This document shows, in pieces, positions 2,042 to 60,900 of a DNA stretch of 64,000 bases. Within the stretch, counting starts at the first letter, position 1; each line of letters starts with the position of its first letter. Below the pieces are notes generated by a model. The model was not told the DNA's origin. It saw only the letters and a list, made by a program, of their open reading frames with translations, and searched no databases. This DNA is from Euglena gracilis (lineage: Eukaryota), in the NCBI GenBank assembly GCA_039621445.1, contig CP154954.1:38611703-38675702 (forward strand), in the 5' to 3' direction. The position numbers and the translations under genes are program-made.

Positions 2042-4506
2042 ATTGGGGGAGGGGGGTTATCATCTGGGCAAATTTTTTGAAGTCCAAAATTGGCCCAAAA
2101 ATGCTTCAATGGGCTCCAAGCGTGATTTTTTTGGCATTTTATTCAACATCAATGTGTAATGTGTGTCAAGCTGTGACAAGGGGGTATTTGCAAAAATGGC
2201 CACCCCCACTAGCCGGAGTGGGGCTATGGGATGGGGTGTGGGGTGGGTAGGGGGATTGGGGGGGGGGATGTCAGGGTAAACCCCAAAAAAATTTCCTGTT
2301 CCTTTTTGCGTCTTCGGAATTCCTTTGAAATGCGGTTGTGTGTATATTTGGGGGGCTTAACATTTTGGGGGTTATAATGAAGTGTCAGGAGCATGGCTGC
2401 GTGGCTCTGTGTCCAGGCCCCCCAGTGCAGACCCAGTCCCTGACCCCCCCCCCCGTTTTTGCCATTCCCCCGGATCGGGTATTGCCGCCCTGCATCATGA
2501 GCATTGCCCCCATTTTCAGTCCCTCCCCCCCAAGCTGTCCAGAACGCAGCCTTCAACACCTGGATGGCCTCGCTTTGGACTTCGACGCATCGCCGTCGGA
2601 GAAGATGTGGACGCGCTTGCGGCCCCTCCCGCCCAACTGGGGGCCACCGCTTCCCTTCCAGACCCCGGGGTGCCACATGTCCTGAGGCAGAGCATCAATT
2701 TCAGCTTTGGCAGTTGAGAGGCCGGTCGGATGCATTTGCCGCTCTGCTGGGACATGGCGTGGGTTGCCATCCGGGCCACTTGCAAGAAATACGATGCCGG
2801 AAGCTGGCGAGAAGCATGCTTCGGGCTCATCACGTCCCCACGCCTGGAGAGCAGAAGCACCTTTCAAGCAGCAAGTGGATTGGCACTGGGAGGGGGAAGA
2901 CAAGGCTATTGACCAAAAAAAAAAAAACAGGATGGCCACCTCAATTAACACAGAGTCCAAATCAAAACGCAACTGAAACCTTGAAAAAGAAACCCCCCCT
3001 CAATTAGAAATGGTACTGTGGTCCTGTAGCAGGAAACCTGGGAGGGTTTTGGTGAAAAACAAAAAAAATGTTGACGCTTGGATGGATAGGCAATGCTTCA
3101 AGCATGCTGGAAATAAATTTCCCAGTTCAATCTGTTTATTCGAACTTCTTGCAGTTTTGGCACATTTTTTGTTGAATGTGCTCCAGCAGATTTTTTTTGC
3201 ACTTCATTGAGGTCGCCAGATTTCTCTGGGGGGGGGGGGGGGGCTGTTATTTGGATTTTTGGCGGAAATTATTTAGTTATTTAGATTTTTGGCGGCGTTG
3301 TTAAACAGGTGGGGATTATCAAATTGAGGGGCCACTTTGGTGCATAATTGCGTCCAGTCCGTCTGTGGCTGGGCTCTCCAAAATACCAACCCCATGAACA
3401 TGGGAGTTGAAATGACAGCATCGAAAAAAGAGGTAAAAAAAATGGGAAAAAAAGGTCAACACCCACTGTGGAAGGGGAAAATGGATGGCTTAATAAGACA
3501 AAAGCAAACCTCCAGTGCAAAGCAACAGCCCAGCACTGCGGGTCATACAGCACCGGAATTGGCGCCGCTCCTGTTGCTTGGTCCTCCCTGGGCGGCAGAA
3601 AGGCACGGTGGGTTCCCGATGACTTCCAAGCATGCAGTGGAGGCAACACCGTTGGGGATTCCTGTTCCCACTGAAAATGTTGCTGACTGTTGTTGACTGA
3701 ACCAGACAAAGGAGGAGCTGCAATCATTCCCAGCCAGCCAGGGGGAAGTGGTGTTGGCTGGCAGGACGCCATGGGGTGGGAAGAACCTCGGCCCCAACAG
3801 GGGCCAGGGGAATCGAAGAGCGGGAATCTGGGCAGGGTCCAAAACATTTGGCTTTAAAGCCCCCCCGCCAATGCCACCCGAAGGAGTGCACACCGTGAGT
3901 CCTCAAAGATGCGCACCTCTCAAAGGCCAAAAAAAAATGGTTTCAAAAGCACTCCCAAGCTGAGACGGAAAAGGATTTGACTCCAACAAAGAACAGCAAT
4001 GAAAGCGTAAAAAGGTGGAAATTGAACCCTTGTTGAGGCACTTTGGTGAGCCCTGATAAATGTTTATGTGACTCCACCCCGGCAGTTTTGAAGCCATCCC
4101 CCACTTTTTGGGGGTCCTTAAACCCCTCATATAGACCGAGAAGATGCCCAAAGTGGTGAGGGGAAAAAGCAAAAAATGTTGCATGGGCATTGTCGGCCAT
4201 CATGCATTTCTTTTGAAAACAAGCCTCGTTGGAAAGGCCAGTGTGATTCTGAGTGATGCTCCCTTAACTCGCGACCTGCAGCTGGGCAGAGTTAATCAGG
4301 TCCTACAAACCTTGGGCGGCAAGCACCCATGGCCATCCAGAACACAAGCACGCCCACCCATGCCCAGTTGTCCCTAGAAACCCGGGTGTCAAAAAGGACC
4401 AAAAAGTGACCAAAAATGGCGATGCATAAACAAAAAATAACCAAAAGTGTCCACAAGTGGCCCAAAGATTGTTGAAAAGGGCCAAAAACAGCCAAAAAAG
4501 GCTGAG

Positions 4507-5464
4507 CAGGGGGGGGGGATGCGCTGGACGGCCCTCGGAAAAAATGCGCAAAAATGCGCAAAAAAAATGCGCAAAAAATGCGCTGAGTTTATGACATTCC
4601 TCAGGGAAAAAGGACTTATAAAAATCTCCAACAGTAAACCCAAAATTAAACCAAAATCACCAAAAAGAGCTGAAATGAAGGCATTTTGGCCAAAATGCAT
4701 GACCAAGGCGTCACTCTCCGTTCACCATAACCCCCCTCCCAAATAACACCCCCCCCCAAATAACACCCCCCCCCCAAATAACACACCCCCCTCGGGGGCC
4801 GATTTCGAGCGCCCAAATAACACACCCCCCTGTTTTCCTTTGGTTTTGCATGTAAAAATAGCACCCCCCCCCAAATAACACCTCCCCCCCTTGGGGCCCC
4901 AGTTCGGGTGCCCAAATAACACACCGGGGGGGGTGTTATTTGGGGGGGTTTAACCAACAATGTCAGCCATGGTTGCCCCTTACTGGTGACCAGGGGAATG
5001 GGATTCCCGCCTTGGTTACGTGCCAATGTGGGGTCTCTGAAACCCTAGTGTCTTCATCGTCATTGGATGAGTACCCATACCTCATCACCCAAGGGTTTTC
5101 TCTTGAGGCGGGTTCCTTGGGTGGAAAAAAAAATGCGAAAATGGGTTCGTTGGTTACAGAAATGGTCAGTTAAACGTGGGCAAAATTCGATGAGCATGTG
5201 ATTTGGGTGGAAAATGTGCAAAAACGGCAATATGTGCAAAATTGGGCAAAAAAAATGCGCAAAAAAATGCGCAAAAATGGAAAATGTGCAAAATTGGGCA
5301 AAAAAAATGCGCAAAAAAAATGGAAAATGTGCAAAAACGGGGGAAAATGTGCAAAAAAAATGCGCAAAAAATGCGCAAAAATGCGCATTTTTGAAAAATT
5401 GACAAAAATGCGCAAAAAATGCGCAAAAATGCGGAAAAATGCGCAACACATTCCCCCCCCCCTG
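4507..5464 (+). mobile_element. AAAAATGCGC-repeat element carrying nested insertions (AAATAACAC-core MITE at ~4725-4955)
   Basis: Same termini and internal repeat as 19401-19845; GGCTGAG on both flanks. Confidence 0.65.
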
Positions 5465-8400
5465 GCGGCTGAGCGTTGCAAAACTGACCAAAAAGTGGCA
5501 AAAGTGGCCAATTTGGCCAAATTTCCTCTCGCCCCCAGCCACGCCCCTCAGGCCCAACATAGGTGCTCAGGGGGAGGTTTGTCAGAGGGTCTTTCGCAGA
5601 AAAACTAGTTGGTTTCCTGAAAAGGATGCTGGTCCTGGTTTTAACCCCCCTCTGGGCTTCGTTTAAAACCCCGGGGGGAAGGGGGGCCCCCCCACCCACC
5701 CAGCCTGCCACGGAACCCCCTCCCCCCGGGAGGCGGGGACCCCTCCCAAAAAAAACAGGGCTGTCTAAGGGCATTTCCAAAAAAAATGAGGACACCGTGT
5801 GGCTTGGAGGCACCACAAAAGGGAAGGAGATCAGGCTTCTCTTCAAGACCTCGGGGGAGGGGAGGGGGCCCAACCCACCGAGCCCAGTGCGGGACCCCCC
5901 CCCTGTGTGCACTGCGCGGGACCCCCCCCCCGGGGACCCCCCCCCAAAAAATCGGGCTGGTTGGGTCACTGAAACCCAGAGCCGGCCTCCAGCCCAGGCC
6001 CCGGAAAAAATTTGGGCTGGCTGGAAAGGGGTAGTTGTTGAAGAATCAACCAAAAAGAGGGGCAGGATGCATCCCAAAGCAGCCACAAGCCTTCTTTCTC
6101 TCCCCCAAGAGCAGAAGCTTGAGGGAGCTCAGTGCTCCTTTTGGCCGTGGAGTGAGTTTTCAGATTTAAACTCTAGGTAGGCTTCCTCAGGGAATAAACC
6201 CTTTTGCCACTCTGGTCCACGTTGACACCCCTCAAAACATATAAAAAAATCCCCATCTAGCCAAGGCGCAGGAATCAAGAAAAAGGCTGGCAATTTCATC
6301 CCATAATGGCCTCCTTTTTCGCATACACATGCACAGACCATCACATACACACACACTCACACACACGTCAGAGACAGAGGAGCCACAAAAATTGACCTGC
6401 GCTGCTGAAAATAAAGATGGCGTAGCAATGGAGCGCTGTGGCAATTGTTGAACATCCGACTGCCAAACTGCAGCTCATACACTGTTCTGGGATTGGGGGA
6501 AGCCAAATGGGTTCATGGATGGATGGTGAACAGACAGCGTCCATTCTGGCATTTTTCTGACATTCTGGCCCAACAGACGAAGCGGCTCACACATCAAAGG
6601 GGTCCGGCCCGCCAGGGCACCTTTTTCCACCCTGAAGCTCCCAGCCGGGCTGCGGACCACCCCAGGGTTCCGCTGCAATAAAGTTGGGGTCAACCTGGCA
6701 AAGCCAGGATGGACCGAAGAAGTTCTTCGGTGAAAATTGGGGTTTTCCAGCCTCCCTTGGCCTGACCCACCCCCTATGTCCAACGACCGGTAACCTCTGT
6801 CCTCCGACCAGGGGGGAGGGGGGGTTGGACAAGGGGTCAAAAAAAAAGTTGTACCTGGGACCCCACCTCCCAAAAAAGGTCTCAATTTTCCTCCCGGTGC
6901 TTTGGCAGTTTGACAATTTTTTGCCCCCCACCCCCAAAAAGTGCCACAAACAGCACTTTGGCCGATTTTTGGCTGATTTGATTTTGAACGAAAAAAAAAT
7001 TCAGGCCGACACTTTGAGCCAGGCCAAAAATCAGGTCCACCGAAAAAGGTGTCCTCCGACTGGCTGGGGGGTGGTCGTTGGACATAGGGGGGGGGGGGGT
7101 AAATGAACCCCTGTCAACAACTACCAGCCACACAAGCGAACACAACGCACAGCCCGTCAACCGGATACGTGACACTCCTTGCCATGTACAATGTCCTGAA
7201 ATACTGGAATGGCTTTGAAATCAACCCCCAAAAAATAAGCCCCTCCTCCGAGATAAGACCTCCCGAAATAACACCCCCCAAAATTAGGCCCTCCCCCTGT
7301 GAAAACTTTCCCTGAAACACCAAAAACCAAATAACCACAAACCCCAAATTCAGGAAAATGATGAAATTTCAATTTGAAATTTTTGAGTTTTAAAAAACAT
7401 GGTCAACGTCAAGCTGAACCAATTGCACGTGGCACATGGCACGAAGCGCCGAAAATAAGACCCCCAAAAATAAGACCTCCCTGTTTCCAGCAACAGACGC
7501 AAAAATAAGCCGCGGATCTTATTTTTTGGGGGTTACTGGAAATACTTTGAATCCTTCTTCGGGCTACCCTCATCACGTTAAATAATTAGACAACTCTTCA
7601 CGTGGAATAATAATCCCAGCCATCCCTGCCGTTCAGCCATCTTGCTCTCCATTGTCAGGTCAGACTGGTATTCAACCACGGGATCCTGAAAGCAAGAAAC
7701 CAAAATGTTTCCTTCTGGTTGCGATTTGCAAGATGGACCGCTGCCCCAAATGACAAGGGCCGCACGTGAAGAAGAGGAGAGTCTGCTCACTGGGCTTCCG
7801 ACACCGAAGGGATTCTGGATTCTAAATTGACCCATGCGACTCCCAGGGTCCTGAAGGGAAAGTCTTTCACTGTTTCCAACTGGAGAAGAACCGGGCTTTT
7901 GGGGCATTTCAAAAAAAAAGTGTTAAAACGTGAAACATAGATTTCCCACACAATAACGTGTAAAATATCACACAAAGATTGGATTTGAATTTCCGGAATG
8001 CAAAAAGACAAATGTGCATCAACGGGAGGAGTCGCGCATTTACAACTGAACAGCTTTCTCTGCACGTGCACAAGGGGAAAAAATCCTGTCCATCACTGTG
8101 TAATTGTTGCATTTGCGGTTGGAAACAGGAAATTCTCCTCCATCTCCTCTGAACTGAATGATGAGGATTACAGGCTTCCCTAGAGATGAATTGCAAATGT
8201 GTTGAGTGAAAGGTGTTCAAGTGGGGAAGGTGGGGAAGGCAAGAGAGGAAGGGTGGGTGAAACTTGAGCTCAAATGCAATTTGGAGCTCCTGCATTGTCG
8301 ATGTACTTGTGCCAAAAAACGTTAAACCCCCACTAAAAAAGTGCACGGGGGCGCGCATTTTAAGGACGCAGTTTCGGGCCCCAAGGGGGTGCGTACTTAT

Positions 8401-20801: not shown

Positions 20802-23745
20802 TTTGTATGACAGAGGGCCTTACTCCGTTGAAGGCAGAGGTGAGTTTCCATTGGTTTTGGGATGATTTGGACAATGGGGGGTCGGCACGCGGTGGCAAGG
20901 GGCCTGGCTGACCGAAGGCCGGCCCTTTGGCAGGACCCCCCCATGTAAGACCCCCCCCCCATACACTTTTCATTTTTTCTGGGGATTCCAATTTTTTTTT
21001 GACAAAACTGTTTTTCCCGTTCCAGTCGGGACCAAATACTCCCGTCCGTTCTACTGAAAAGAGTTACAAAAAAAACAACAACGTCGGCTCCATGACATTT
21101 TTTAGCCTTCCTTGGCCCGGACCGAATTTAATCCCACGAGGTTTGGTGCCAAAACCGAATTTAATCCGGGCGCCTTTAATCCCTGCGTATTAAGTACCCG
21201 GCGCCTTTAAACTACCCCCCGTGTAAGACCCCCCCAGGATTTTGGCTCCCGAGGGGGGGTCTTATATGGGGGGGGGGCATGGTAGTCAGCCAACTAGTCG
21301 GCCGACTACCCACTCTAATGTACTAACGGGTCAAGTTCGCCGACTTTTAAGCCACCCCCCCCCTCAAAGAAATCATTGGGGGGTCGGCACACCCCTCCCC
21401 CCCCCACTGACCCCCTCGCCACGCCATTTCCCCCCCTCCCCCCCCTTCTCAGACCCCCTCGCCACGCCATGTTAGGCCTGCCAAAGAAAATTTCCTTGGC
21501 AAACCCCCGCATACCCCCCCCTCCGGGACCCTCGCCATGCCAAAACCCCTCCCCCCCCCCTAGCCGGAGGGGTCTTACCCTCACACCCCCAATTTGGCTA
21601 ATGGCCGGGCTCCTTCAGACCCCCATTAGCCAATTGGGGGGGGGGCACAATTAGGGGGGGGGCTCGAGGAACCCGACCCCATAATTTCTGACGTGTGCAA
21701 AATTGGTCGATTTTTTGTGCATTTTTGAATTGGTCATGACTTTTTCTTATCCGGCAATTTTTAACATTTTCGAAACGGACGTTTTTGGAGGTTTTCTGAG
21801 CCCTTGCCGAAATTGGCCAAAGTTGGCCAAGGGAAAGTCCATTGGCCAATAGGGTTAACCCCCCCCCTAATTGGCGAATGGACCTCCCTTAAGGATCCCC
21901 CAATTAGCCAATTAGGGGGGGGGGATTAGGGGGGGTGAGGGCATATGGGGGTCTTACCCCCCCCCCCTTATTGTCTCCCCCCCCTTATTGTCCCTGGGCC
22001 CCGGCCGACGGGGGATTTTTTGGCCCGGCCAATGAAATTCCTTTGGTACCCCCTTATTGTCCCCCCCCCTTATTGTCCGGTCGGGACTCCCGGGGAGAGG
22101 TCGGTGGGACAATAAGGGGGAGGGGGGGGGTGGTATATGGGGGGCATGGTACCCACTGCCCCCCCCCCCCCGTTTCGCCGACTAGCTACCGACCAGGCCC
22201 AGTTGGCCGACCAATTGGGTAATCGGCCGACTACTCAACCGACTACCCACTGCCCCCCCCCCCCGGTCTACCGTTTGGCACTCAGGGGGATACAAGAAGT
22301 GTGAAAGTAGGGCCAAGACGCTAACACCTTTTTGAAGTCCAATGCGCCAAAAAATTGAACTAGGAGGGTGTTGCCCCCGTGTCCCCCCGCCATGTCCCCC
22401 CCCCCCGTGTCCCCCTTGTCCCGGACTAGCGACCTCTTTCAATCCCCGAAAAAATCACCCTTCAAAATCCATAAACAAAGGAAGTCACCCCAAAAAACTG
22501 AGATTTTGAGGCAAAAAATGGCCCTTCCCAAAAGCGGCATGTTCCCCCCGTGTCCCCCCCCCCCGTATCCCCCCCCGTGCCCCCCCCCCATGTCCCGACC
22601 CACCCCCTAGAAAAGCAAAACCATGGGAAGAACCCCTTTGGAAACCTCCCAACTCAACCCAACTGTTGACTTTGCAACCAGGGGGGGGGGGGCGAAGAAG
22701 CCATTTCTCACTTTGCGCAAATTATTTGTTTCATTGAGATTGACCCACAGAGTTTCCCCAAACTCGGCTGGTCAAGAAAATAGAGGGAGGGGGACTCATG
22801 GGGAATCGTTTTGGATTCAAACGGCCAAGGTCAAAGTGGTTTGTGGGGTCCCGAAAAAAACATTGGCATGAAAGGTGGGAAAAAAAAGGCGGTGTGTGGC
22901 CAAACTCAAGCATCAAGAAGTGCCAGGGTTTTAGGGAGGTGAAATGAGCATTTTATCAAGGGCTTCAGTTTGGCCGCCAAAGGCGGCAGACGGTAAGTGA
23001 TTTTGCAATTTTATTTTTTAGAAATGTGATTTAACTTGTCAGGTGGCCGCCAAAGGCAGGCGAGACGGTAATGCCCTTTGAACCATTGAAAATGGTACCC
23101 CCCCCCATATTGTCCCCCCCCCATATTGTCCCTCGGCCCGGCCGACGAGGGTTTTTTTTGGCTCGGCCAATGAAATTTCCTTTGGTACCCCCATATTGTC
23201 CCCCCCCCATATTGTCCCGTCGGGCCTCTTGGGGAGAGGTCGGTGGGAGAGGTCGGTGGGGGGGTGGGTATTGCAAAGAAAGACACCACAGTCATGCCAC
23301 AAAAATTTTGTATTTCCAAAATCCGGGGGGGGCTGCCCCCCCCCCGACCCCCCCTTGTGACACCTATGATCCCTGACACCAATGCGTCACTCTCCGGTGT
23401 CACCCAGAAGGGGCTAGAGCCCCCACTGGGCCACCCGGGTTCCCCAAGGAGGAACCAACGGTCTGATCCACAGCCCCCCTTCCATTTCGAACTTTTCATT
23501 GGTCTTGCCTGTTAACCTTGGGTCCAGCCCCGAGGCTAGGTGAGGATTGTCGTCCGCACCACCACCCGGCCATGGACGCCGGGCCTGGGGTTTAGCAAAC
23601 GCTGCTGCAAGTGCGCAGCACCCCTGAGGCTTCCTAGTCTGATGGCCGACAGCGAGTCCCACAGCACCAGGAAGTGTGATACTAGTTGAAGGTTCAGGTC
23701 GGCGGAAACAACGGTGGTGGGGCGAACCGAATCCACCGACCAATG

Positions 23746-24291: not shown

Positions 24292-25778
24292 TAATAGATT
24301 TGACGAGTTCAGGGGAGTGGGGCTATATGGCAGGGCAAACCGCAAAGATGGCGGAGGCAGTGTTTCATGGGGTGCTCAAAGGTGCAGAAGGGAGGCGGGT
24401 CTTGGTGCAGAGGGAAAGAGGTGGTAATGCTGAGTTATGGAATGGCCGGGGCAGGTGTGATGTCTTGGTGCCAGAATGGTTGCTAGGCAGCTGGTGTCAC
24501 GGTGGGATGTTCATGCCTGTGGTGAACCTTGCTACTTGTCTTGTTGGTTCTAGCGTGTTCCTGTCCCCTTCTTGGGGGAGGTCGGGAATGCGATCAGGGT
24601 GGGGGGGGTGTGGTCCATTTTATGTTTTTTCGTGCTCCGTTTTCCTCCCACCTTTTTGTGGGGTTTATGCTATGCGCAATTTTGCTGAGAGCAGTTTTGT
24701 GATTTGCCTCACCAGGGCAATGGACAATTGTTCGTGAGGCTCGTTCGCTTTGGTTTGGCGTTGCTCCCCTTCTTGCCAAGAGGCCTCCCTTTGTAGCATG
24801 AGGTTGACGTTCTTGGCTCCTTCTGGGCCCAGCCGCCCCATGTACCAAAGGCGAAGTGGTGAAAATACACCCTGCTTTGCGGCAAGGCTCATCATACATG
24901 TGTGAGAGCGGTGGTGGGGCGAACCGAGTCCACCGACCAGTGGTACAGCCTACTGGATTTTAAGACATACAAATCTTGATGAAGGGCCAGGTCATAGTAG
25001 GTGGGTTTTCTTCAGTCTTGTCGACGCGGTTCCAACATGCAGGGGCTTGTTTGGCTGTGTTGGTCAATGGCTGCCCCGGTGCTTCCTGCGTGCGGCCGGC
25101 CGTCTTGCCGACCGCGCGGTGTGACACTGGTTAGGAACAAACAAACTCTTACCTGGATGACAAACGTAATCCGTTCCGCTGGTGGCGAGCAAAATTGACC
25201 ACCCAAAAGTGGGTCCCCCAGCCCCTTCCGGAGCCAACTCCGCTGGGGAAGGGGTGGGTGGGTGGGTCAAGACCCGGGTCCTGAAAAAAACCGTCTGGTG
25301 GGAGGACTGCAGGGGTGATCACCTTTGAACATTCACCGGGGGGGGTGCCCTTGACCGGTTTTGATGGTTGGGGGTGATTTCAATGGGTACAATTTGCTCT
25401 TTTTCCTCTCAAAGGTCATTTTCAGGTGGCTGGCTCATGGACTTTTATCAAAATTTCTAAAAATTTGCCAAAAGTGTGTTTGGCAGAGGGGGGGGTCCGG
25501 GTCCCTGCTTTGAACTGCTTGCGTGCTGCTTCGGTGGTTGAACAGTTTTGGCGTCCTTCACCAACAAGGATGATGTCAGGTCACTCCTGGGTGACCTGAC
25601 ATGATCCCTGGGGGGGGGTGCCCGGTTGCCATTACTTTGGCACCTGGGATTCATGATAAGTGGCCAAAATACTGGCCCGTTGTTGCAGAAACTTGGCATC
25701 ATTTTGGTGCCAACATTTTGGCAACTCTGAGCCAAAAGACCAGGCCAAATACCTGGCACGAGGGGCCAAAGGTGAAGC

Positions 25779-26433
25779 GGTACTTGTTCGCTGCACGACC
25801 GCCAGTGAATTATGGGGTCATTTGAAGGAGTAGTGTTAGGTGCGCACATGGGAGGCCAGGCACAGCGGGGGGGGGGCTGAGGGGGGCGAGTGGCCGCGCG
25901 GGCGGCCGCGCGGGGGGGAGGGGGGGGAGGGGGGTCCGAGGGCGGCCGCGCGGGCGGAACGCATCCTAAAACCGGTGATTTTCGGGTCCAAAAAGTGGTC
26001 ATTTTTAGCCATTTTTGGGCCATTTTTGCCCAAAAAAGTGCTTTTTTGGCCGCGCGCAGAGCGCGCGGCCCCCAAATTTTTGGTCATTTTTGGGCCTCAA
26101 AAATCGCGATTTTTTCACCAAAATTTTTTTTCTTGACTATGCTAGGCACAGGGGGGAGGGGGGGTCCAGGGGGGGGGCGAGCGGCCGCGCGGGCGGCCGC
26201 ACAGGGGCCGCGCCGGGGGGGGGGGGGCGGGGGGGTCCCAGACCCCCCCAAGCGGCGCGCCTAGCCTCCATGGCCAGGTTGCGCAACATGGCCATTTTGC
26301 GCACATGGCCATGTTGCGCAACATGGCCATGTAGCGCAACATGGCCATGTGCGCACCTAACCCTACTCCTTCAATAACCCTAAAAAATCCGACTGTAAAA
26401 ATTTCACTGGCGGTCGTGCAGCGAACAAGTACC
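25779..26433. mobile_element. Non-autonomous Merlin-type fold-back MITE
   Basis: TIR GGTACTTGTTCGCTGCACGACCGCCAGTGAA; perfect 8-bp TSD GGTGAAGC; internal inverted arms and tandem ACATGGCCATGTTGCGCA-like units; shares GGTACTT termini with the adjacent Merlin. Confidence 0.85.
25851..26269. mobile_element. MITE with 3-bp TSD (PIF/Harbinger-like) nested in the Merlin-type MITE; related copy in opposite orientation at ~17710-18135
   Basis: TIR GGAGGCYAGGC...GCCTAGCCTCC flanked by ATG/ATG. Confidence 0.75.
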
Positions 26434-26524
26434 GGTGAAGCTGCAATTGGATATGTTTACCATGCCCCCCCGATAGTGTCCCCTGCCACAGGACCCGGCC
26501 GGCGGTCCTAAAGGAATTTTATTG

Positions 26525-27795
26525 GGTACTTATCTGTTATCGTACGACGGACCCCCCCCCTTTCGGTTATGGTACGACACCCCATTTTTGGGTTGCTGGT
26601 CTCCCTGCACGCTGCAAGCAGTGCTGGGCATTGCACAGGAACCCCTGTCTTCCGGTCCTCACTCCTCCGGAGGCCACTATCCCGCTATGCAGGCCAGCAG
26701 CGCGTCGAACGGGTCAGTGTGTTTTACAGACTGGCGCCAGAGGAACTTTGCCAGGTAGCTGTCGAGTAACGTTCGCCGGGTGCCGCGGTGCACTTTGGGC
26801 CTGCACGGGTGCCCCGATTGGCCCGAGTGCACTGAAGTGTGGGGTTATATAAAGGAATAGGGTTAGGTGCGCGACTTCCACACCCCCCCCTTTCCCGGCT
26901 CGGGGAACCGGTGTGCATTGCGCCACTTGGCCAGGCCCCACACCCGCTCGATGAGCTGGGTGTGGGCTCCGGTCCGTGGGTCGATGAAATTATATGTGTG
27001 ATTCAGGTGGTTATACCCCGCGCGCCTGAGCTCCCGGGAGGAGTAGCCGGCCCAGCAGTCCGACATGACCGTGCTGCCCGGCGCGACGCGCGCCTTCAGG
27101 ACCCGCGTCAGCGTGCGGGCCGTGCGGTCGGGGACGGTGGTCATGAACATCTCCCGCGTTTCGCGGCAGATGCCGCCGAAAACCCACTGCGCCGGCAGGA
27201 TGCGGCCCTTGTTCCCCTTCCGCTTGGAGAACAGCGCCTCGTCCACCTCGACGACCCGACCCGGGCCGCCGATGCGGCTCAGCTGGCAGCTGTCCTCGAG
27301 GTCCTGTACCGCCACCTCGCGGAGGTACGAGCACCAGTCTGTGGTCCCCTCCACCCCAGGGCCCTGCCGTGGCGCCCCCCGTACGCCTCGGCAGGACCCT
27401 GCGGCGTGTGACATGTCCAACTCGTGCCGGGCCCAGCGGTGTGACACGTTGTCGTGCGCCCACTGGTACAGGAACTGGACCGCCCGGACGAAGTCGAGGC
27501 GCCCGAAGTCGAACCACGTGCCGAGCCGGACGCCGCGTGTGCGGCGGCAGGTGCGGTCGGGGCACCGCCACAGCACCTTCTGGCCGTAGGAGAGCACCAT
27601 CTCCGTCCCGCACGGGCACGTACGCGCCAGGTGCAGCACGCCATGCCGCTGAAGCAGCTCAACGGCCTCACGCTCAGAGCGCGGGAGCTCGAGGGAGCGC
27701 ATGGGGAGGGTCGGCACCCTGTGGAAACCACAAACCGGGGGTGTCGTACCATAACCGAAAGGGGGGGGTCCGTCGTACGATAACAGATAAGTACC
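26525..27795 (-). mobile_element. Merlin-superfamily (IS1595/ISXO2-like) DNA transposon, near full length
   Basis: ~58-bp terminal inverted repeats (TIRs) GGTACTTATCTGTTATCGTACGACGGACCCCCCCCCTTTCGGTTATGGTACGACACCCC; perfect 8-bp TSD TTTTATTG (26517-26524 and 27796-27803); encodes a DDE transposase. Confidence 0.95.
26659..27702 (-). CDS. Merlin/ISXO2-like DDE transposase, three coding segments (27702-27406, 27351-26917, 26796-26677), mildly decayed
   Basis: N-terminal Cys cluster (CPC...WRC...C), VVEVDEALFSKRK (D1), TVMSDCWAGY (D2), HTQLIERVW (E), and a separate C-terminal segment KVHRGTRRTLLDSYLAKFLWRQ...DPFDALLACI. A TAG five codons before the probable TGA, and an apparent 2-aa deletion in the HxxVNH motif, suggest decay. 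Confidence 0.88.
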
Positions 27796-27989
27796 TTTTA
27801 TTGACCCCCCCGATGGTGCCCCCCCCCCTAATAGTGTCCCATGCCCGCTCTTTGGTTGGGCCGGGTTTGGGACCAGGCAATTGCTTAAGCACTGACCGAC
27901 CCCCCCCCCCCGGGGGGTGACTGGTTTTTTTCAGAGTGACTGACTGGTTTTGGCCCGGACCCCCTCACCCCCCCCCGGGGGGCGCAAGG

Positions 27990-29100
27990 CGGTAGACTGG
28001 GGGGGGGGGGGTAGTGGGTAGTCGGCCGACTAGTCGGCCGACTACCCACTCTAATGTACTAACAGGTCCAAACCGCCGACTTTTAAGCCCCCCCCATGAA
28101 GAAAATTCAATGCAAACTAGTCGGTGGCTAGTCGGCGGTCATAAAAATGGTCTGTGGCGGGCCCAAATCACCCGGAAACGGTCCGCATGGGTCCAAGTGT
28201 CTTACGCCTAAATAAACACCCCCAGACGGAAATCTTTGGTCGGTGGGGGGTCGGTGGGCCCTTGACGGGGGTCCGGAGGGGTAAAAAACCAATGATGAAA
28301 CAGGGATTACATGAAAATCCTTTAGAAATGCAAGCATTCTGCATCACGAGAGGCAGAAATCTCTCCCCTCCACCCCCATCCGAGCCTCAAATAACAAAAT
28401 CCCTTCTGTGTTGGCAACATACTCGGGGCTACCCCCCCCCATATTGTCCCAACCACCTTCCCACTGGGACCCCAAATGGACAATATGGGGGGGGGACAAT
28501 ATGGGGGTACCAAAGGAAATTTCATTGGCCGAGCCAAAAAAACCCCCCGTCGGCCGGGCCGAGGGACAATATGGGGGGGGGGGGACAATATGGGGGGGGG
28601 TAAGTCGTTTTTGTGGCTCACTTTGGCATAGGCGGGGGGGGGGGGGGGGGGCTCCGCCCCCGCACCCCCCCCCTCAAATAACAAAATCCCTTCTATGTTG
28701 GCAATAGACTTGGAGGGATAAGACCTTTTGTGCAAATTTTGACTTATATTGAAAATCCAATGGGGAGAGGTGTTCTTTTTCCAAAAGTGGCCCAAAATGG
28801 ACATTTCCCCCCATTTTTTTTGCATATTCACCCCCGATTGGGGGGTTCTGGAGCCATTTGGGTGGGTTTTGACTGGTGTTGAGGCAATTTGGACAAAAAA
28901 ATTTTCCCAGGGGAAGGGGGGCTTAAAAGTCGGCGGTTTTGACCCGTCAGTACATCAGAGTGTGTAGTCGGCCGACTAGTCGGCCGACTACCCACTACCC
29001 CCCCCCCCCTGTCTCGCCGACTAGCTACCGACCAGGCATAGTCGGCCGACCAATTGGGTAGTCGGCCGACTACCCACTACCCTCCCCCTCCAGTCTGCCG
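27990..29100. repeat. Fold-back element built from AGTCGGCCGACT palindromes (second copy ~21281-22275), with nested ATATTGTCC-core MITE
   Basis: GTAGTCGGCCGACTAGTCGGCCGACTAC arrays and inverted arms at both ends. Confidence 0.7.
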
Positions 29101-35200: not shown

Positions 35201-38200
35201 GGAACAAAATTTCACAAATTTCATGAGAAAAATTACTTCCATGATGCATTTTCACAACGTGTTTTTGGATTCAAAACTTTCCCCAAAACAGAAAATTTTG
35301 CCAAATAATCCTGACTGGAACTTCGGCGATCCACATGGCGCTCAGGGAATTTCTTAAGCCGGAGGGTACCCTACCCCCCGGGGGGGGGGGTCCAGCCAGC
35401 CAGCAGCTCAAATCCAGCCAGCAGCCCAAATTCGGGCTGGGAGCCCCCCCCCCCCGGGGTCGAGTGAAATAAAGTCGGGTCCAGCCCGGCCGGAGGCCGG
35501 GCCAGCCGGCCGAAGGCCGGCCCAGCCGGCCGCAGGCCGGCCAGCCAACTGGGCTGTCCAGCTCACTTATCCCTGCATTTTTCCCCCTCATCACAGCCCC
35601 TCCATCACAGCCCCCCAGCCTTGATCTAGCTCCACCCATCAAAATGTCGAAAATGGCCAAAATGTGTTAGAAAATTTTGTTTTTCGTCGACCCAGCCCAG
35701 CCCAGCCCGCTCCAGCCCGGGACCCCCCCCCCTCCCCCCCCCCCCCCCCCCCGGGGGGGGGGGGTCCAGCCAGCAGCTCAAATCCAGCCAGCAGCCTTTT
35801 TGCCAGCCGGGGGCTGGACCCCCCCCCCCCGGGGGGTCCTTAAGAAATTCCCTGATGGCGCTCCCGGGGGCTAGGGGGAACAATATTTTGGCAGGTTAAT
35901 TGGGAGCAAGTTTGCACAGAAGGAGGAGAGGGTTATGGAATTAATTTTTTTGAAACATAACAATCACCGCTGCGTATGTGATCAGGGAATTTCTTAAGCC
36001 GGAGGGTACCCTACCCCCGGGGGGGGGGGGTCCAGCCAGCCAGCAGCTCAAATCCAGCCAGCAGCCCAAATTCGGGCTGGGAGCCCCCCCCCGGGGTCGA
36101 CTGAAATAAAGTCGGGTCCAGCCCGGCCTCCGGCCAGGCGGCCAGCCGGCCGAAGGCCGGGCCAGCCGGCCGCAGGCTGGCCAGCCAACTGGGCTTCCCA
36201 GCTCACCTATCCCTGCATTTTTTCCCCTCACCACAGTTTCCTACATCACAGCCCCAGCCTTGACCAAGCTCCATCCACCAAAATGTCGAAAATGGCAAAA
36301 ATGTGTTAGAAAATTTTGTTTTTCACCGACCCAGCCCAGCCCAGCCCTCTCCAGCCCCAGACCCCCCACCCCCGGGGGGTCCAGCCATCAGCTCAAATCC
36401 AGCCAGCAGCCTTTTTGCCAGCCGGAGGCTGGTCCCCCCCCCCCGGGGGTCGTTAAGAAATTCCCTGTATGTGATGTGACCGAAGATTGTTTTTTTTTTT
36501 GCTCCACCTCCCCCCTCCGGGGCCAGCCAGGATCGGCCAAAACTGGCCCACCAGCGCCAAAGACACTGGAAATTTGGGGGGGGGGGGTTGAGCCATTTTG
36601 GCCCAATGGTCAGCGACCCCCCGTCTTCGGAGGCTCTAAAAAAAACCTGTCAGTGTCTTGGTGGGGGGGGGGGGTCGGACGTTTTAAGCAATCCTGGTAT
36701 GCACACATGGCATAGAGTGGGCCCCAGGGTTGTGTGGGAAGCTCCACAGGCATGAGGTGGGTGGTAGGGGGGTGCTCACCCCAGGGGGGTAAGGTTGTGG
36801 GGGGGGGTCCCTCACCCCCCAGTTTTGGAGGGGGGTCCCCACCCCCCCCCTTGGGGCTCAAATTTTGCACTCAATGGTAAGAAGTTCCGGGAACCAAAAA
36901 CAGGAGATGGGAGCAGGTTTCTGCTTAAGGGATTGCAGTACCCCCCCGGGGGGGCTGGACTGCAGCTGGCCCAAATTTGGCTAGTGGGATTTCTAGCAGA
37001 CCCCCCCCCGGGGGGGTTCTGCCAGCAGGGCTAGCTAGTGGAAAAAATTTTCCAGTGACCGGCGCGAAGCGCCGGAAATTTTTTTGGGGGACCCCCAAAG
37101 ATGGCCAAAAGTGCCTGTTTTTGGCCATTTTTGGGAGTTTTTTGAAACAAAATCAGCCAAAAACCTATTAAAAATCTCATTTCCACCTCGGCGCGCAGCG
37201 CCGGAGGAAATTTTTTTCCAGTTGGGGGGACCCCCCCCCCCCGGGGGTCTAGCTAGGCCACCTCCACGTACACAGACAAAAGGGCCAGAGGCGAACAACA
37301 GCGCCAGGCCAGAAGAAGGGGTAAAAGGCACCCAAAAACAGCCACAGTGCACACAGGGTGTCTAGCTAGTCCATTTTTTCCAGTGTCTAGCCGATTGGCT
37401 GGCCAGTACCCCCCCCCCCTCCCGGGTCTTTAAGCAAAAGCCTGGATAGGAGAGGGGTCCCCCCTCCCCTCTGGCCACCTCGGGAACCGGCGGATTATCA
37501 CCATGATCCCGGCTCCGTTTGCGGAATTTTTTTTTTCAGTCGCGAGCGACTGGATTTCTAGTTTCCGAATCACCTCCGGTTGACCCGCAACTCCCCGCCA
37601 GGCCCGAGTTATTCACGCGCGAAGGGTCCAAACTGGGTAGGATTGCTCCCCCCCCTTCCGACTCTGCCATTTCGCCGGGGTCCAAAAATCGGTCAAAAAT
37701 TGATTTTTCGAAAGTATCTCGAGAAAACGTACATTATTTCCGGAAATTTCGGTCTGACGTACCCCCCATGGGGTCCCCCCCCTACCCCCATTTTGTTTTT
37801 GTTTTTGAGTCCCATTCCCCCACTCCCAGTCCCCCTCCCCGATGGTTTTTTTCGAAGCTGAGTGTGATTTTTCCCCCCCCCCCGTTTCCGGCCATTTTTT
37901 TTCGCCGGCGATTATCCCCTTTTCAGGGCCCCCCTTCCCCGCATCCCGCTGGCTTGTTTCGCCCACCCCGCCGGGACCCCCCCCCTTCCAACCCGTATTT
38001 CGGTCCCCCCGACTTTCCCGTCCCTTTCCCCTTTTTCCCAGGCCGCCCTCTACAGGGTTTCGATATACACGTATATTATGGTTTAGGTGGGGGGGGGTGT
38101 CCCCCCACCCCCCCCCTCCTTGCCCCCACCTGCAAGGGGGGTCCGGACCGACCCTCGGGGGGGTACCCGGGACCCCCCCCAAAAAGGGTCAATTTTTTCC

Positions 38201-57937: not shown

Positions 57938-60900
57938 CTTATTTATTATTTTTTCTTGTTGGAAAAGTCAGAGGAAACAAATTTGCCATTTTGGTTGTGA
58001 ATTCTGGACAACGTTTTCCAGTGGTTATGTCCCCACTCCCTCTTGATGCGTTTCTTTGGACCTCTTCCCCATTCTTTCCTCTGTTTCTCTGCCTGCCTCC
58101 GGCGTTGGCGTTCTGCAAACCTTCTGGCTCTCTCATCTTTTCTTCAGATGAAGGGCCGATGGCCGTGTGAACTTAGTGGGGGGAAGGAACCAGTCACCCA
58201 TCTGCCCCCTCAGGGTTTTTTTTAATTTGGAGACTTTGATTTTGATTTTTAATTTGGGGACTCACCCCCCCCCCTGGGGCGGGTGAGTCCCCCCCAAGGT
58301 AGTCAGCCAGATAGTCCCTCGCTCAGAGGCGGGGTTTTGGCTTTTTTTTGGCACAAGGTGCCGATCTTTTTGACCCCAAAATGGGTCCCCACACTGGCAG
58401 GGGGCACCCCCCTGCCCCTGAGTGGGTGGGGGAAGCCAGTTTGTAAAAAAATAAACACTGGCCCAACGCCCGTCTTTGCCAGAGAACCGCAGCGAGTGGG
58501 ACAAGCGGGTGTCGGTGCTGGACCAGGGAGCGCCAGGTGTGCTCCCCTCCGGGGGACGCCCTCGGGCGCTATTTGCGATGCGGCCGAACCAGAGAACCAC
58601 CCGATTGCCGACATCCCCACCTCGCAGAAGAGGCACCTTCAGGGGCGAACCTTGCAGATATTTCTTGCAGATATTCCCACATTTTCCACACAAGCAGTTT
58701 TGTTCATTTGTGGGATTTTTGTTTCCAACAGGATTCCGCTTTTAAATGGCAGGTATTTTGGACGCCCAAAAAAATCACTTCGGGGTTTGCTTCTCCCGGG
58801 CACTGCCCCTGGGGGGAGCACCTGTGCCCGCCCAGGCATTCTAGGGTACTCAAGCCCCCCCCCCCCGAGGTTGATCAAATTTGTTTAGCCTGTCATCGTC
58901 ACCGCAGCATTCCTTCCAAATAGCTGGAAACTGGCAAACTTGGGCATTGAAGTGGGATAAAAAGCGAGAAAGGAACAAAACCATGAAAATAATTGCGTGG
59001 TGTGGAAACGTTAAGTAATAATCCTATGTGGACTTGGAAAACAGCATTGTGGTTTTGGCATGCATTTGGGGGAATCAGAGCTCTGCGGTTGGCAGCGTGC
59101 AAAAATGTGGAGGAAACCATCGAGCTTCATCGACCACGGGAAAGTATCAGGACAAAGTCCAAAAGCAAGAGAATGCATGGCTTTGTATATTTGCCCTCTT
59201 GTTCCTCAGACACCCGCCATGTGTCGGAGGCAGATTTTGGGAATCTGCTGGTCAAGTTCGTCCAAGAACGTTTTGGGGAGGAGCAGACCAAGCGAATTGT
59301 TGACTCTTTCCGTCGGGTGTGTACTGTTACTCACTGCCCACCTTTTTTAAACACTCCGCATAATTCCTTTTTGTTTATTTGTCATATTTTTTGGTGGCAT
59401 TTAGTCAGAAATGGACATGGCTCAAATTATTATTATACATTTACAATAAATGATTTGCAGTAAATAATAATAATAATAAATGGCAAATAATCAGATATAT
59501 TCATTGCATGAACAGGGTGGTTCTCAGGCGGCCGGCTTCGCGTTTTCGTGTTGGTTTGTGCATTTGCGCAAATCAACACGGAAAAAAATTGGCAGTGTGA
59601 CTACGGGGAGTCGCAGGCATGACACAGTGACCAGCGAGTGGAAATAATGAGTAAGCTGCGTAAATTATGGCGGGTGTAACCCCAGGTATTTTGGCGAAAT
59701 ATGGTGTTTTTTGGGGGGGGTCTGGAAATGGGCTCCGCATCTCAAAACTCCCGGGACTTTCCTCCCCGGAATGACAAAAATGCAAAAAAAAAAAAAGAGG
59801 CAAAGGAATGGGACTTTTACCCCCTTCTTGCTCCTTTTATTTAGTGTTATGTGTTTGGTGTGTTTTGCAAAGTGCGGGGAGGGGATGCTGGGGCCTGTGG
59901 GTGTGGTGTGACCAAGCTGGCGGGAAGGACGTAGAGCAAGGAAGGTAAGTGCAGGGTATTTAGCAAGGGATGGGCAGGGGGGGAAGAAATGGGGTGCGCA
60001 GGACGGGCGTTCCCACACAACTTGTGTCCGGGATACCATTGCTTTTCACCTGTCCCACGGGGGTGCCTGACTGGTTTTTGTGAGTGACCCCCCTCCCCCC
60101 TGGGGGGGTCGCTCAGCAATGGTATGATCCGCACAACCAGTTTTGTCACAAAGAACCCGGAAGAAGAAGCACAACCTTTGAAGAGCAAAATTTATTAGTG
60201 GGTGTGAATGCACACACAAACAAATTTTGTTCGTGCGAGCTTTCACGCCCATGAACACAATTTTGTTCATGGACGCCTGTGAACTGACGCCGTCGATAAA
60301 CGGCATGACGAAGGGGCCGTGACAGCACGGCGCCAAAAACATATTTTGGGGGGTTTGTCACACCGTTTATCGACGACGTCAGTTCATGGGCGCCAAGGCG
60401 CTCACAAGTATTTGTTTGTGCGCGCATTTGCGCCCACAAACAAAATTTGTTCATGGATTCTGAATGGTCGACACATGGTGTGACAAAATACACAGCCATC
60501 AAATGCGGGTGAATCGCTGAAGCGCGCATCACGTTTTGTTCGTGAGCACCATGCCCCAAAATGAACCAGTTGCAGAAAATCACAAGGGGTCCATTTGCGC
60601 CTGAGCCCCACACGAACAATGTCCCTTCGTTGTTCTGTTTTCCACCAAGGGTCCGCCCGTTGTTTCGCCCCTGTTCCGCACCGTGCCCCCTTGTGTGCCA
60701 GACGGAGCGGGGCGAGGAGTTCCGCCAGCGGTTCGGCCCGCACCCGTTCATGGAGCAGATCGCCAGCTCATACATCGCAGGACTGGCCAGGACTCCGGAG
60801 AACCTGTTGTGTGGTTTAGACTGGCGGCGCCGCGGCCGACGGTTTTGTGCGCTGCGGCCAATGCCACACCGGAATTCATTTGCGCCACGACCGGTGCCGA

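Follow-up and report, generated by a model that had tools for sequence, protein, structure and literature searches.

Two candidate introns, one of them of nonconventional hairpin form, in the transposase gene of a Euglena gracilis Merlin transposon

The element described here lies in a 64,000-nucleotide stretch of the Euglena gracilis genome (assembly GCA_039621445.1, contig CP154954.1, positions 38,611,703 to 38,675,702; hereafter the window, to which all coordinates refer). Between positions 26525 and 27795, on the minus strand, there is a complete DNA transposon of Merlin/IS1595 type, 1271 bp long, whose transposase gene is interrupted at two places by sequences that are probably introns. 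The transposon body occurs once within the window. A perfect 8-bp target-site duplication (TSD), TTTTATTG in plus-strand letters, adjoins the element on both sides, at 26517..26524 and 27796..27803. Inside it lie terminal inverted repeats (TIRs) of about 66 nt, at 26525..26590 (the 3' end as transcribed) and 27731..27795 (the 5' end as transcribed), which were delimited by the complementarity of their arms and by contig depth: arms 26525-26562 and 27758-27795 are 97% complementary, and 26553-26590 and 27731-27768 are 92% complementary. The ends start with GGTACTTATCTG on either strand, and the TIRs thus begin GGTAC, with the terminal GG that is quoted, together with TSDs of 8 or 9 bp, as characteristic of Merlin elements in the description of the superfamily in E. 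gracilis (Lopes et al., 2021, PLoS One; PMC8101967).

The long reading frame that starts with the ATG at 27702 matches PF12762 (ISXO2-like/IS1595 DDE) with E = 3e-10 and 40.7 bits, the cut-off being 27. Residues D154, D215 and E252, which we take to be the catalytic residues of Merlin transposase, fall in columns that hardly vary when the protein is aligned with 15 homologues. A protein database search returned 102 relatives, nearly all of them about 290 residues long and carrying PF12762; the best are 46-49% identical, and the sources include nematodes, aphids and mosquitoes. The element is a member of the Merlin superfamily, as all four features tested agree (domain, DDE residues, GG-ended TIRs and TSD), and the initial annotation, which had recognised a Merlin transposase gene here, was right.

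Two Merlin families, F1 and F2, have already been described from E. gracilis (Lopes et al., 2021). They resemble the window element in superfamily and host, in TIRs starting GGTACTT, in the 8-bp TSD and in the conserved DDE core. By eye, the window TIR diverges from both published TIRs after about 15 nt, and on TIR sequence the window family is distinct from F1 and F2. No near-identical protein was found in database searches at near length and at shorter length, the best match being 60% over 91 residues. The F1 family, which is about two-thirds identical, is missing from the protein database matches too, so that the database seems to lack E. gracilis products, and its silence is uninformative on expression.

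The transposase gene is made up of three exons, on the minus strand like the element itself. Exon 1 (27405..27702, ATG at 27702-27700) encodes an N-terminal cysteine-rich region and was placed from the open reading frame and the homologue alignment. Exon 2 (26917..27350) encodes the DDE_Tnp_IS1595 catalytic core, on the basis of the PF12762 match and the conserved columns. Exon 3 (26677..26796), again placed from the reading frame and the alignment, encodes a conserved C-terminal block, RGTxRxxLDSYLxxFxWR, and ends at a TAG at 26679-26677. The resulting frame of 852 nt has no stop or shift outside the two intervening sequences, which are called here insert 1 (27351..27404, 54 nt) and insert 2 (26797..26916, 120 nt).

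Insert 1 can be placed at 27405-27352 or equivalently at 27404-27351, the two positions sharing a g. It is a hairpin, CAGGGTCCTGCCG / CGGCAGGGCCCTG, with a stem of 13 bp that includes one G.U pair; its layout is ccg-CAG, the stem, and CTG-gggtgg, after which the sequence goes on with a. The predicted fold has an energy of -42.8 kcal/mol (z = -5.64), which none of 200 shuffles equalled, and the duplex formed by the two arms has -34.5 kcal/mol, a value reached by 0.025% of controls. In the protein as read directly from the window it appears as 18 extra residues between ...LDMSH and TTDWCSYLREV..., and when it is removed the frame stays open and the exact spacing of the homologues is restored. 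No TSD surrounds it: by eye, the flanking 8 or 9 nt do not agree with each other.

The published signature of nonconventional euglenid introns is 5'-N3CDG-/-CH'GN5-6, followed by a purine (R) at the exon start, with a 5' spacer of strictly 3 nt (Nomura et al., 2025; PMC12501133). According to the same paper, 71.8% of E. agilis introns are nonconventional, and the code covers 61.2% of these; given the first figure, the nonconventional type is the expected one here. Insert 1 agrees with the signature as ccg-CAG...CTG-gggtgg followed by a, the frame being kept only with a 3' spacer of 6 nt, that is for a cut at 27404-27351. The initial annotation had described 27405-27352 as a 54-nt hairpin whose removal gives the usual Merlin spacing, which both the sequence and the homologue alignment confirm. 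It had also placed the register one base off a 3+5 rule; the offset is real, yet a spacer of 6 nt falls within the published N5-6 rule. The agreement of sequence, fold, frame and published code suggests that insert 1 is probably a small nonconventional intron of the euglenid kind, hairpin-guided and without GT-AG borders.

Insert 2 (26916-26797) carries an in-frame TAA at 26865-26863. It parts ...AKWRN from KVHRGTRRTLLDSYLA..., and 120 nt further downstream the C-terminal block of the family resumes without a change of frame, as KVHRGTRRTLLDSYL.... Its two outer arms, one of 19 nt (26916-26898) and one of 21 nt (26817-26797), are able to form 12 base pairs as CAC.GG.U.CCCCGA. The arm duplex has a calculated energy of -22.3 kcal/mol, which is reached by 1.3% of 4000 controls of the same geometry from the window and by 1.05% of shuffled arms. 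The 120-nt register has a 5' spacer of 3 nt and gives the exact family spacing. From the alignment, the possible pairing and the profile scores given below, insert 2 is probably a second intron, with atypical motifs and with ends able to pair.

Both inserts are absent from all 15 of the aligned homologues. At the site of insert 1 the sample was larger: 114 proteins were retrieved, and none of the 99 that cover the site has an inserted residue. A profile was built from 46 full-length homologues, and 13 variants of the candidate product were scored against it. With nothing removed the score is 288.1 bits; removal of insert 1 only gives 306.1 bits, removal of insert 2 only gives 341.0 bits, and removal of both at the junctions originally proposed gives 359.1 bits, the best of the 13 variants. 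Alignment to the transposase family, which had been suggested as a check, thus favours removal of both inserts at exact spacing.

The S3 Appendix of Lopes et al. (2021) contains the F1 protein and a DNA alignment of four F2 copies, and both are continuous at the two insert sites. By eye, the F1 protein has its residues spaced as in the window protein without the inserts. Since F1 and F2 are continuous at both sites, the inserts are gains in the lineage of the window element; as judged from these comparisons, they are lineage-specific intervening sequences.

These scores and comparisons bear on a mixed route, in which insert 1 is translated as an 18-residue loop rich in Gly and Arg, or is cut as a GC-AG intron, while insert 2 is spliced conventionally. 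Formally, insert 1 could also be cut at a GC-AG pair, 27402-27349, which likewise gives 54 nt. At insert 2 the acceptor would be the CAG at 26803-26801, and the donor could be GT 26926 (126 nt; the GT-AG alternative 26926-26801 already recognised in the initial annotation), GC 26923 (123 nt) or GT 26908 (108 nt). Each of these candidates keeps the frame and leaves it without a stop, and there is also an in-frame GT/GC-AG pair of 81 nt. The consensus for conventional E. gracilis introns is a GT or GC donor of GTGTG-like sequence, a C-rich pyrimidine tract and a CAG acceptor (PMC11170887), and the acceptor agrees with it. In addition, insert 1 measures 54 nt both in the window and in the published paralogue described below, and the two RNA reads that cover it retain it. 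Against this, the donor GTGGC agrees with GTGTG at three of five positions, and the stretch before the CAG is G-rich and not pyrimidine-rich. The three conventional junctions at insert 2 score 344.0-349.9 bits, that is 9-15 bits below the exact-spacing junction, and the 126-nt cut deletes the conserved RN. For insert 1, besides the homologues without extra residues at its site, one variant copy has 55 nt there, and the changes between copies, if the insert were read, would amount to three replacements, two silent changes and one frameshift. We regard this mixed route as quite improbable. The exact-spacing cut of 120 nt fits the Merlin family best, while the registers at insert 2 all stay candidates.

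Other copies of the gene were sought in Logan contigs of two sequencing runs (one recorded as 'DNA?', one of unrecorded kind), which were mapped to 26400-27900 at a likeness of at least 90%. Insert 1 is kept in all listed contigs over its site in both runs. Records 6 and 15 are variant contigs that run across it; over 144 nt they show one gap and 13 letters that differ from the window, and the variant copy has one additional C in the hairpin loop, which brings the insert to 55 nt. Contigs that equal the window or almost do so (records 1 and 10) span insert 2. A further paralogue is given as a draft-genome contig in the S3 Appendix of Lopes et al. (2021), where it is assigned to neither F1 nor F2. 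It was translated through insert 1, whose 18 residues it includes, and it ends inside insert 2. Within insert 1 this protein has a Pro in place of a Ser; by eye, and as far as a protein translation can tell, this corresponds to a change of the G.U pair in the stem to G-C. Its reading frame through the core of insert 2 is not that of the window, which implies an indel between the copies that is not a multiple of three. As the inserts are present in paralogous copies, they are not one-off lesions, an alternative which the initial annotation had entertained and had proposed to examine in copies with and without the inserts; these paralogues have them, and the sister families F1 and F2 lack them.

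The same contigs speak to the quality of the assembly. The window copy lacks six letters, that is two codons, near 27002 (26997-27006), in comparison with all contigs of the two runs and with the published contig, and it differs from the read-derived contigs in several single bases as well. The six-letter loss takes two residues out of the family's H-L-x-V-N-H motif, which is conserved, and shows up as a gap when the homologues are aligned. The stop TAG at 26679-26677 reads CAG in all contigs of the two DNA runs; with CAG the protein gains six residues and ends like ...WPPEE, as in homologue P0003. A 470-nt contig of an E. gracilis draft assembly, given in the supplement of Lopes et al. (2021), equals window positions 27239-26850 over about 400 letters except for the six extra letters. 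These differences may come from minor decay of this copy, or they may be due to the strain or to the assembly. They might be taken to suggest that the inserts themselves are mis-assembled repeats. However, both inserts are present in the Logan contigs of two runs and in independent published draft-assembly contigs, and an assembly artefact is hardly credible.

The exons of these copies have diverged in a manner that indicates coding constraint. Among the differences listed, 22 single-base changes in exons are synonymous and nine are non-synonymous, in addition to the TAG-to-CAG change at the stop, and 20 of the 31 lie at the third codon position. Random changes in the transposase frame would be expected to be synonymous in 24.8% of cases (binomial p = 8e-8). 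By exon, the synonymous and non-synonymous counts are two and three in exon 1, 16 and four in exon 2, and four and two in exon 3, the last of these being downstream of the stop-bearing insert 2. Since the inserts are common to the copies, they were already in place while the exons diverged under constraint. The persistence of exon constraint in the presence of the inserts is our main argument that they are removed from the RNA.

On balance we favour, with a modest degree of confidence, a low-copy autonomous Merlin family of E. gracilis whose transposase gene has gained two introns, insert 1 being nonconventional and insert 2 atypical with a loop derived from a MITE (miniature inverted-repeat transposable element). 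Three parts of this proposal are what we infer: that the inserts are excised from the RNA, where exactly the junctions lie (at insert 2 most of all), and that the family is active at present.

A number of observations weigh against this proposal, and the first group concerns splicing registers and folds. At insert 1 the register with the preferred 5-nt spacer, next base g, is also permitted; it cuts 53 nt, loses the frame and gives 81.2 bits. The in-frame cut depends on the less efficient spacer: in the published assay, which uses an EgGSL2 reporter, a 3' spacer of 5 nt works best, 6 nt lowers the transcript by 30-40%, 7 nt is worse, and 8 nt gives almost nothing (PMC12501133). At insert 2 the 120-nt register that restores the frame has CAC/GTG and not CDG/CH'G, with a 3' spacer of 7 nt, and thus departs from the code. 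The register that agrees with the code perfectly, cac-CGG...CCG-tgcag followed by G, also matches the E. gracilis consensus; it removes 113 nt and shifts the frame. The same CGG/CCG pair with a 6-nt spacer removes 114 nt in frame, leaving two extra residues, and scores 351.6 bits; it puts C at the exon start, which was disfavoured (unstable) in the published assay (PMC12501133). The terminal stem of insert 2 is absent from the minimum-energy fold, and forcing it costs 1.8 kcal/mol; the insert as a whole has z = -1.56, with 11 of 200 shuffles as good. The description of insert 2 given in the initial annotation therefore stands in part: the extent of about 26916-26797, the stop, the terminal stem and the GT-AG alternative are all present, and the nonconventional code does not apply in the register that restores the frame.

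The abundance of hairpins in the window also has to be considered. It holds 30 code-compliant hairpins with a stem of at least 13 bp on both strands (17 of them on the minus strand), whereas 20 block shuffles gave 1.8 on average, and by density about 0.2 would be expected in a gene of the size of the transposase (about 850 nt). With hairpins so dense, the hairpin of insert 1 is as such weak evidence, and the strong part is its exact fit to the protein family.

The selection argument has its own limits. The exon differences were taken from those listed, in contigs that are at least 90% alike, and two or three copies may be mixed in them. The constraint is uneven: by eye, the published paralogue has 14 replacements in about 99 residues of exon 1 against three in exon 2. 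The window copy moreover carries defects of its own, namely the two missing codons and TAG in place of CAG.

The RNA data are thin. Two raw RNA runs were read at about 5-6%, and six and 27 reads mapped, mostly on the TIRs. In this sample no spliced joint was seen at either insert. About five to six reads of one run cover 27012-27521 at a depth of about 1; two of the RNA reads pass over insert 1 and retain it, one of them coming from the variant copy. Reads on 26808-26909 fall on the repeat core of insert 2. The look for spliced transcripts that had been proposed from the sequence was thus unsuccessful in this very limited sample. The reads are weak evidence against efficient splicing, and they are also compatible with pre-mRNA or with read-through transcripts. 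The peptide of exon 2 and the family names gave no match in five supplement files of an E. gracilis transcriptome and proteome paper (PMC6366073).

Many of these points would follow naturally if the lineage were dead. The inserts would then be lesions, one a palindromic element and the other MITE filler, the copies would have arisen by segmental duplication or passive mobilisation, and the RNA would be unspliced or out of frame. The RNA reads that retain insert 1 and the missing spliced joints agree with this, as do the frame shifts in the code-preferred registers of 53 and 113 nt, the origin of the core of insert 2 as a repeat fragment, the early stop and the deletion within a conserved motif in the window copy, and the many replacements in exon 1 of the published paralogue. 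On the other hand, the exon differences are strongly synonymous, downstream of insert 2 as well; the 852-nt frame is otherwise free of stops and frameshifts; the inserts vary in length while the exon frames stay; and removal gives the exact spacing of the family at both sites. We consider a dead lineage unlikely, although it deserves to be taken seriously, and we continue with the proposal of two introns.

The core of insert 2 (26818..26897, 80 nt) was marked out by a contig joint, by depth and by blastn. In the bins 26808-26909 the summed contig depth, which is not the same as copy number, is 2,900-5,700, against 33-130 in the rest of the body. By blastn within the window, positions 26830-26872 match 25845-25803 (43 nt, 81%) and 26351-26380 (31 nt, 90%), and an inverted-repeat pair (I3) also involves the core. 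The matched places are subterminal regions of a separate Merlin-type MITE at 25779-26433, which points to a MITE origin for the core. In contigs with a depth of 1270-1548 the TIR of the element itself, up to 26589, is followed by 11 other letters and then by sequence from 26842 onward; this implies that the same subterminal motif is present in MITEs with the TIR of this family. The 80 nt are skipped in one variant-copy contig (depth 35), with the joint 26817->26898; other letters may replace the stretch. By eye, no TIRs or TSD are seen around the core.

The TIRs of the element are far more abundant than its body. The TIR bins have a summed contig depth of 20,000-45,000, against 33-130 in the body. 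At 26525 there are 17-18 loose-end contigs with 41-42% agreement, and contigs leave the TIR ends into many different sequences. The depth and the varied flanks indicate that the ends are shared with an abundant MITE family, and repeated TIRs with many flanks imply that a transposase recognising these ends has been active. The suggestion in the initial annotation that the element could spread introns of this kind gains no support: insert 1 has only the depth of the body, and the depth at insert 2 comes from its MITE-fragment core.

The surroundings of the element are rich in repeats. The separate MITE at 25779-26433, 91 bp from the element, is 655 bp long and has perfect TIRs of 31 nt, which start GGTACTTGTTCGCT (GGTACTTGTTCGCTGCACGACC...) and by eye resemble the published TIR of F1 (PMC8101967). 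It has a perfect 8-bp TSD, GGTGAAGC, at 25771-25778 and 26434-26441, and looks freshly inserted. Its interior has palindromic repeats of the type CATGGCCATGTTGCGCAA at 26266-26355, and contigs leave into different flanks at 26433. The transposon is itself nested in other repeated sequence, as contigs with a depth of 50-72 join its flanks, 26514-26524 and 27796-27834 (joint 26514->27819), with a single target octamer and no element. These contigs are short of another 12 nt in the right flank, and therefore represent paralogous unfilled sites rather than an allele without the element. At 28013-28050, within a repeat of about 90 nt, lies a perfect palindrome of 38 nt (AGTGGGTAGTCGGCCGACT and its complement), which recurs at 28959-28996, 21281-21314 and 22216-22251; it probably belongs to another small foldback or MITE family. 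Code-compliant hairpins elsewhere in the window, which are candidate introns or MITEs, include those at 60385 on the minus strand (26-bp stem), at 35811 on the plus strand and 36038 on the minus strand (22 bp), and at 35834 on the minus strand (20 bp).

For the origin of the two introns we hypothesise the following course. After the split from the intronless relatives, the transposase gene would have acquired two intervening sequences. In insert 1 the stem closed by CAG and CTG would bring the exon ends together, and cuts placed 3 nt ahead of CAG and 6 nt past CTG would rejoin the frame. Insert 2 would have ends able to pair, atypical motifs, and a loop containing about 80 nt of Merlin MITE origin. 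It may have begun as an older, short hairpin insert made up of the two arms, which come to about 40 nt where the 80-nt core is skipped; its loop would later have taken up the MITE fragment, although this order of events is conjectural. Full-length transposase would come only from RNA from which both inserts have been removed, and the element, together with the several hundred MITEs with which it has its ends in common, would therefore depend on the splicing of the host. The transposon's own gene would then use the splicing that is thought to neutralise insertions, and one of its introns would be a tolerated MITE-derived insertion. The disfavoured registers (3+6, and 3+7, which is off the code) would throttle transposition of the element and its MITEs, only a part of the transcripts being coding. 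These last two ideas together are speculative, and we think the whole improbable.

Insert 1 resembles the nonconventional euglenid introns in lacking GT-AG borders, in the 3-nt spacer with CAG and the CTG with a 6-nt spacer, in the purine at the exon start and in the stem that joins the ends. Insert 2 resembles them in ends that may pair and in its 3-nt 5' spacer, and differs in CAC/GTG and the 7-nt spacer. The nonconventional introns are excised from RNA, reportedly as circles (PMC6221363), whereas the window inserts are candidate introns recognised from sequence. The transposase of the Drosophila P element depends on the tissue-specific splicing of one intron, the introns there being conventional spliceosomal ones with known regulation. 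The likeness is that transposase output would be gated by host splicing in the window element too; the window element shows no sign of regulation.

A MITE origin has been proposed for nonconventional euglenid introns in the discussion of Nomura et al. (2025), and transposon-derived introns have been reviewed (PMC11282704). The inserts share with these that insert 1 is a short palindrome and that insert 2 has a core with homology to subterminal Merlin MITE sequence. They differ in that insert 1 has no flanking TSD, that the MITE fragment in insert 2 has no termini, and that the interrupted gene codes for a transposase.

Introns in transposase genes are ordinary. Merlin elements in E. gracilis, nonconventional introns with their code, and the proposed MITE origin of such introns have all been published already. 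Among open-access papers in PubMed Central and in bioRxiv, no report was found of a euglenid transposase gene interrupted by nonconventional introns, and the word 'intron' does not occur in the main text of Lopes et al. (2021). The combination therefore seems to be unreported.

The finding leaves what is known of Merlin elements, or of nonconventional introns as such, unchanged. If the inserts are spliced, the published conceptual translation that reads through them (PMC8101967) would be corrected. The gain of introns would be bracketed in time, between two sister families without introns and paralogues that differ in intron length. The inserts also offer natural substrates for the splicing code, one a minimal intron of 54 nt with a 6-nt spacer and the other an off-code intron with a nested MITE fragment. 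Splicing of the inserts would also mean that a transposase gene depends on the nonconventional splicing machinery of euglenids.

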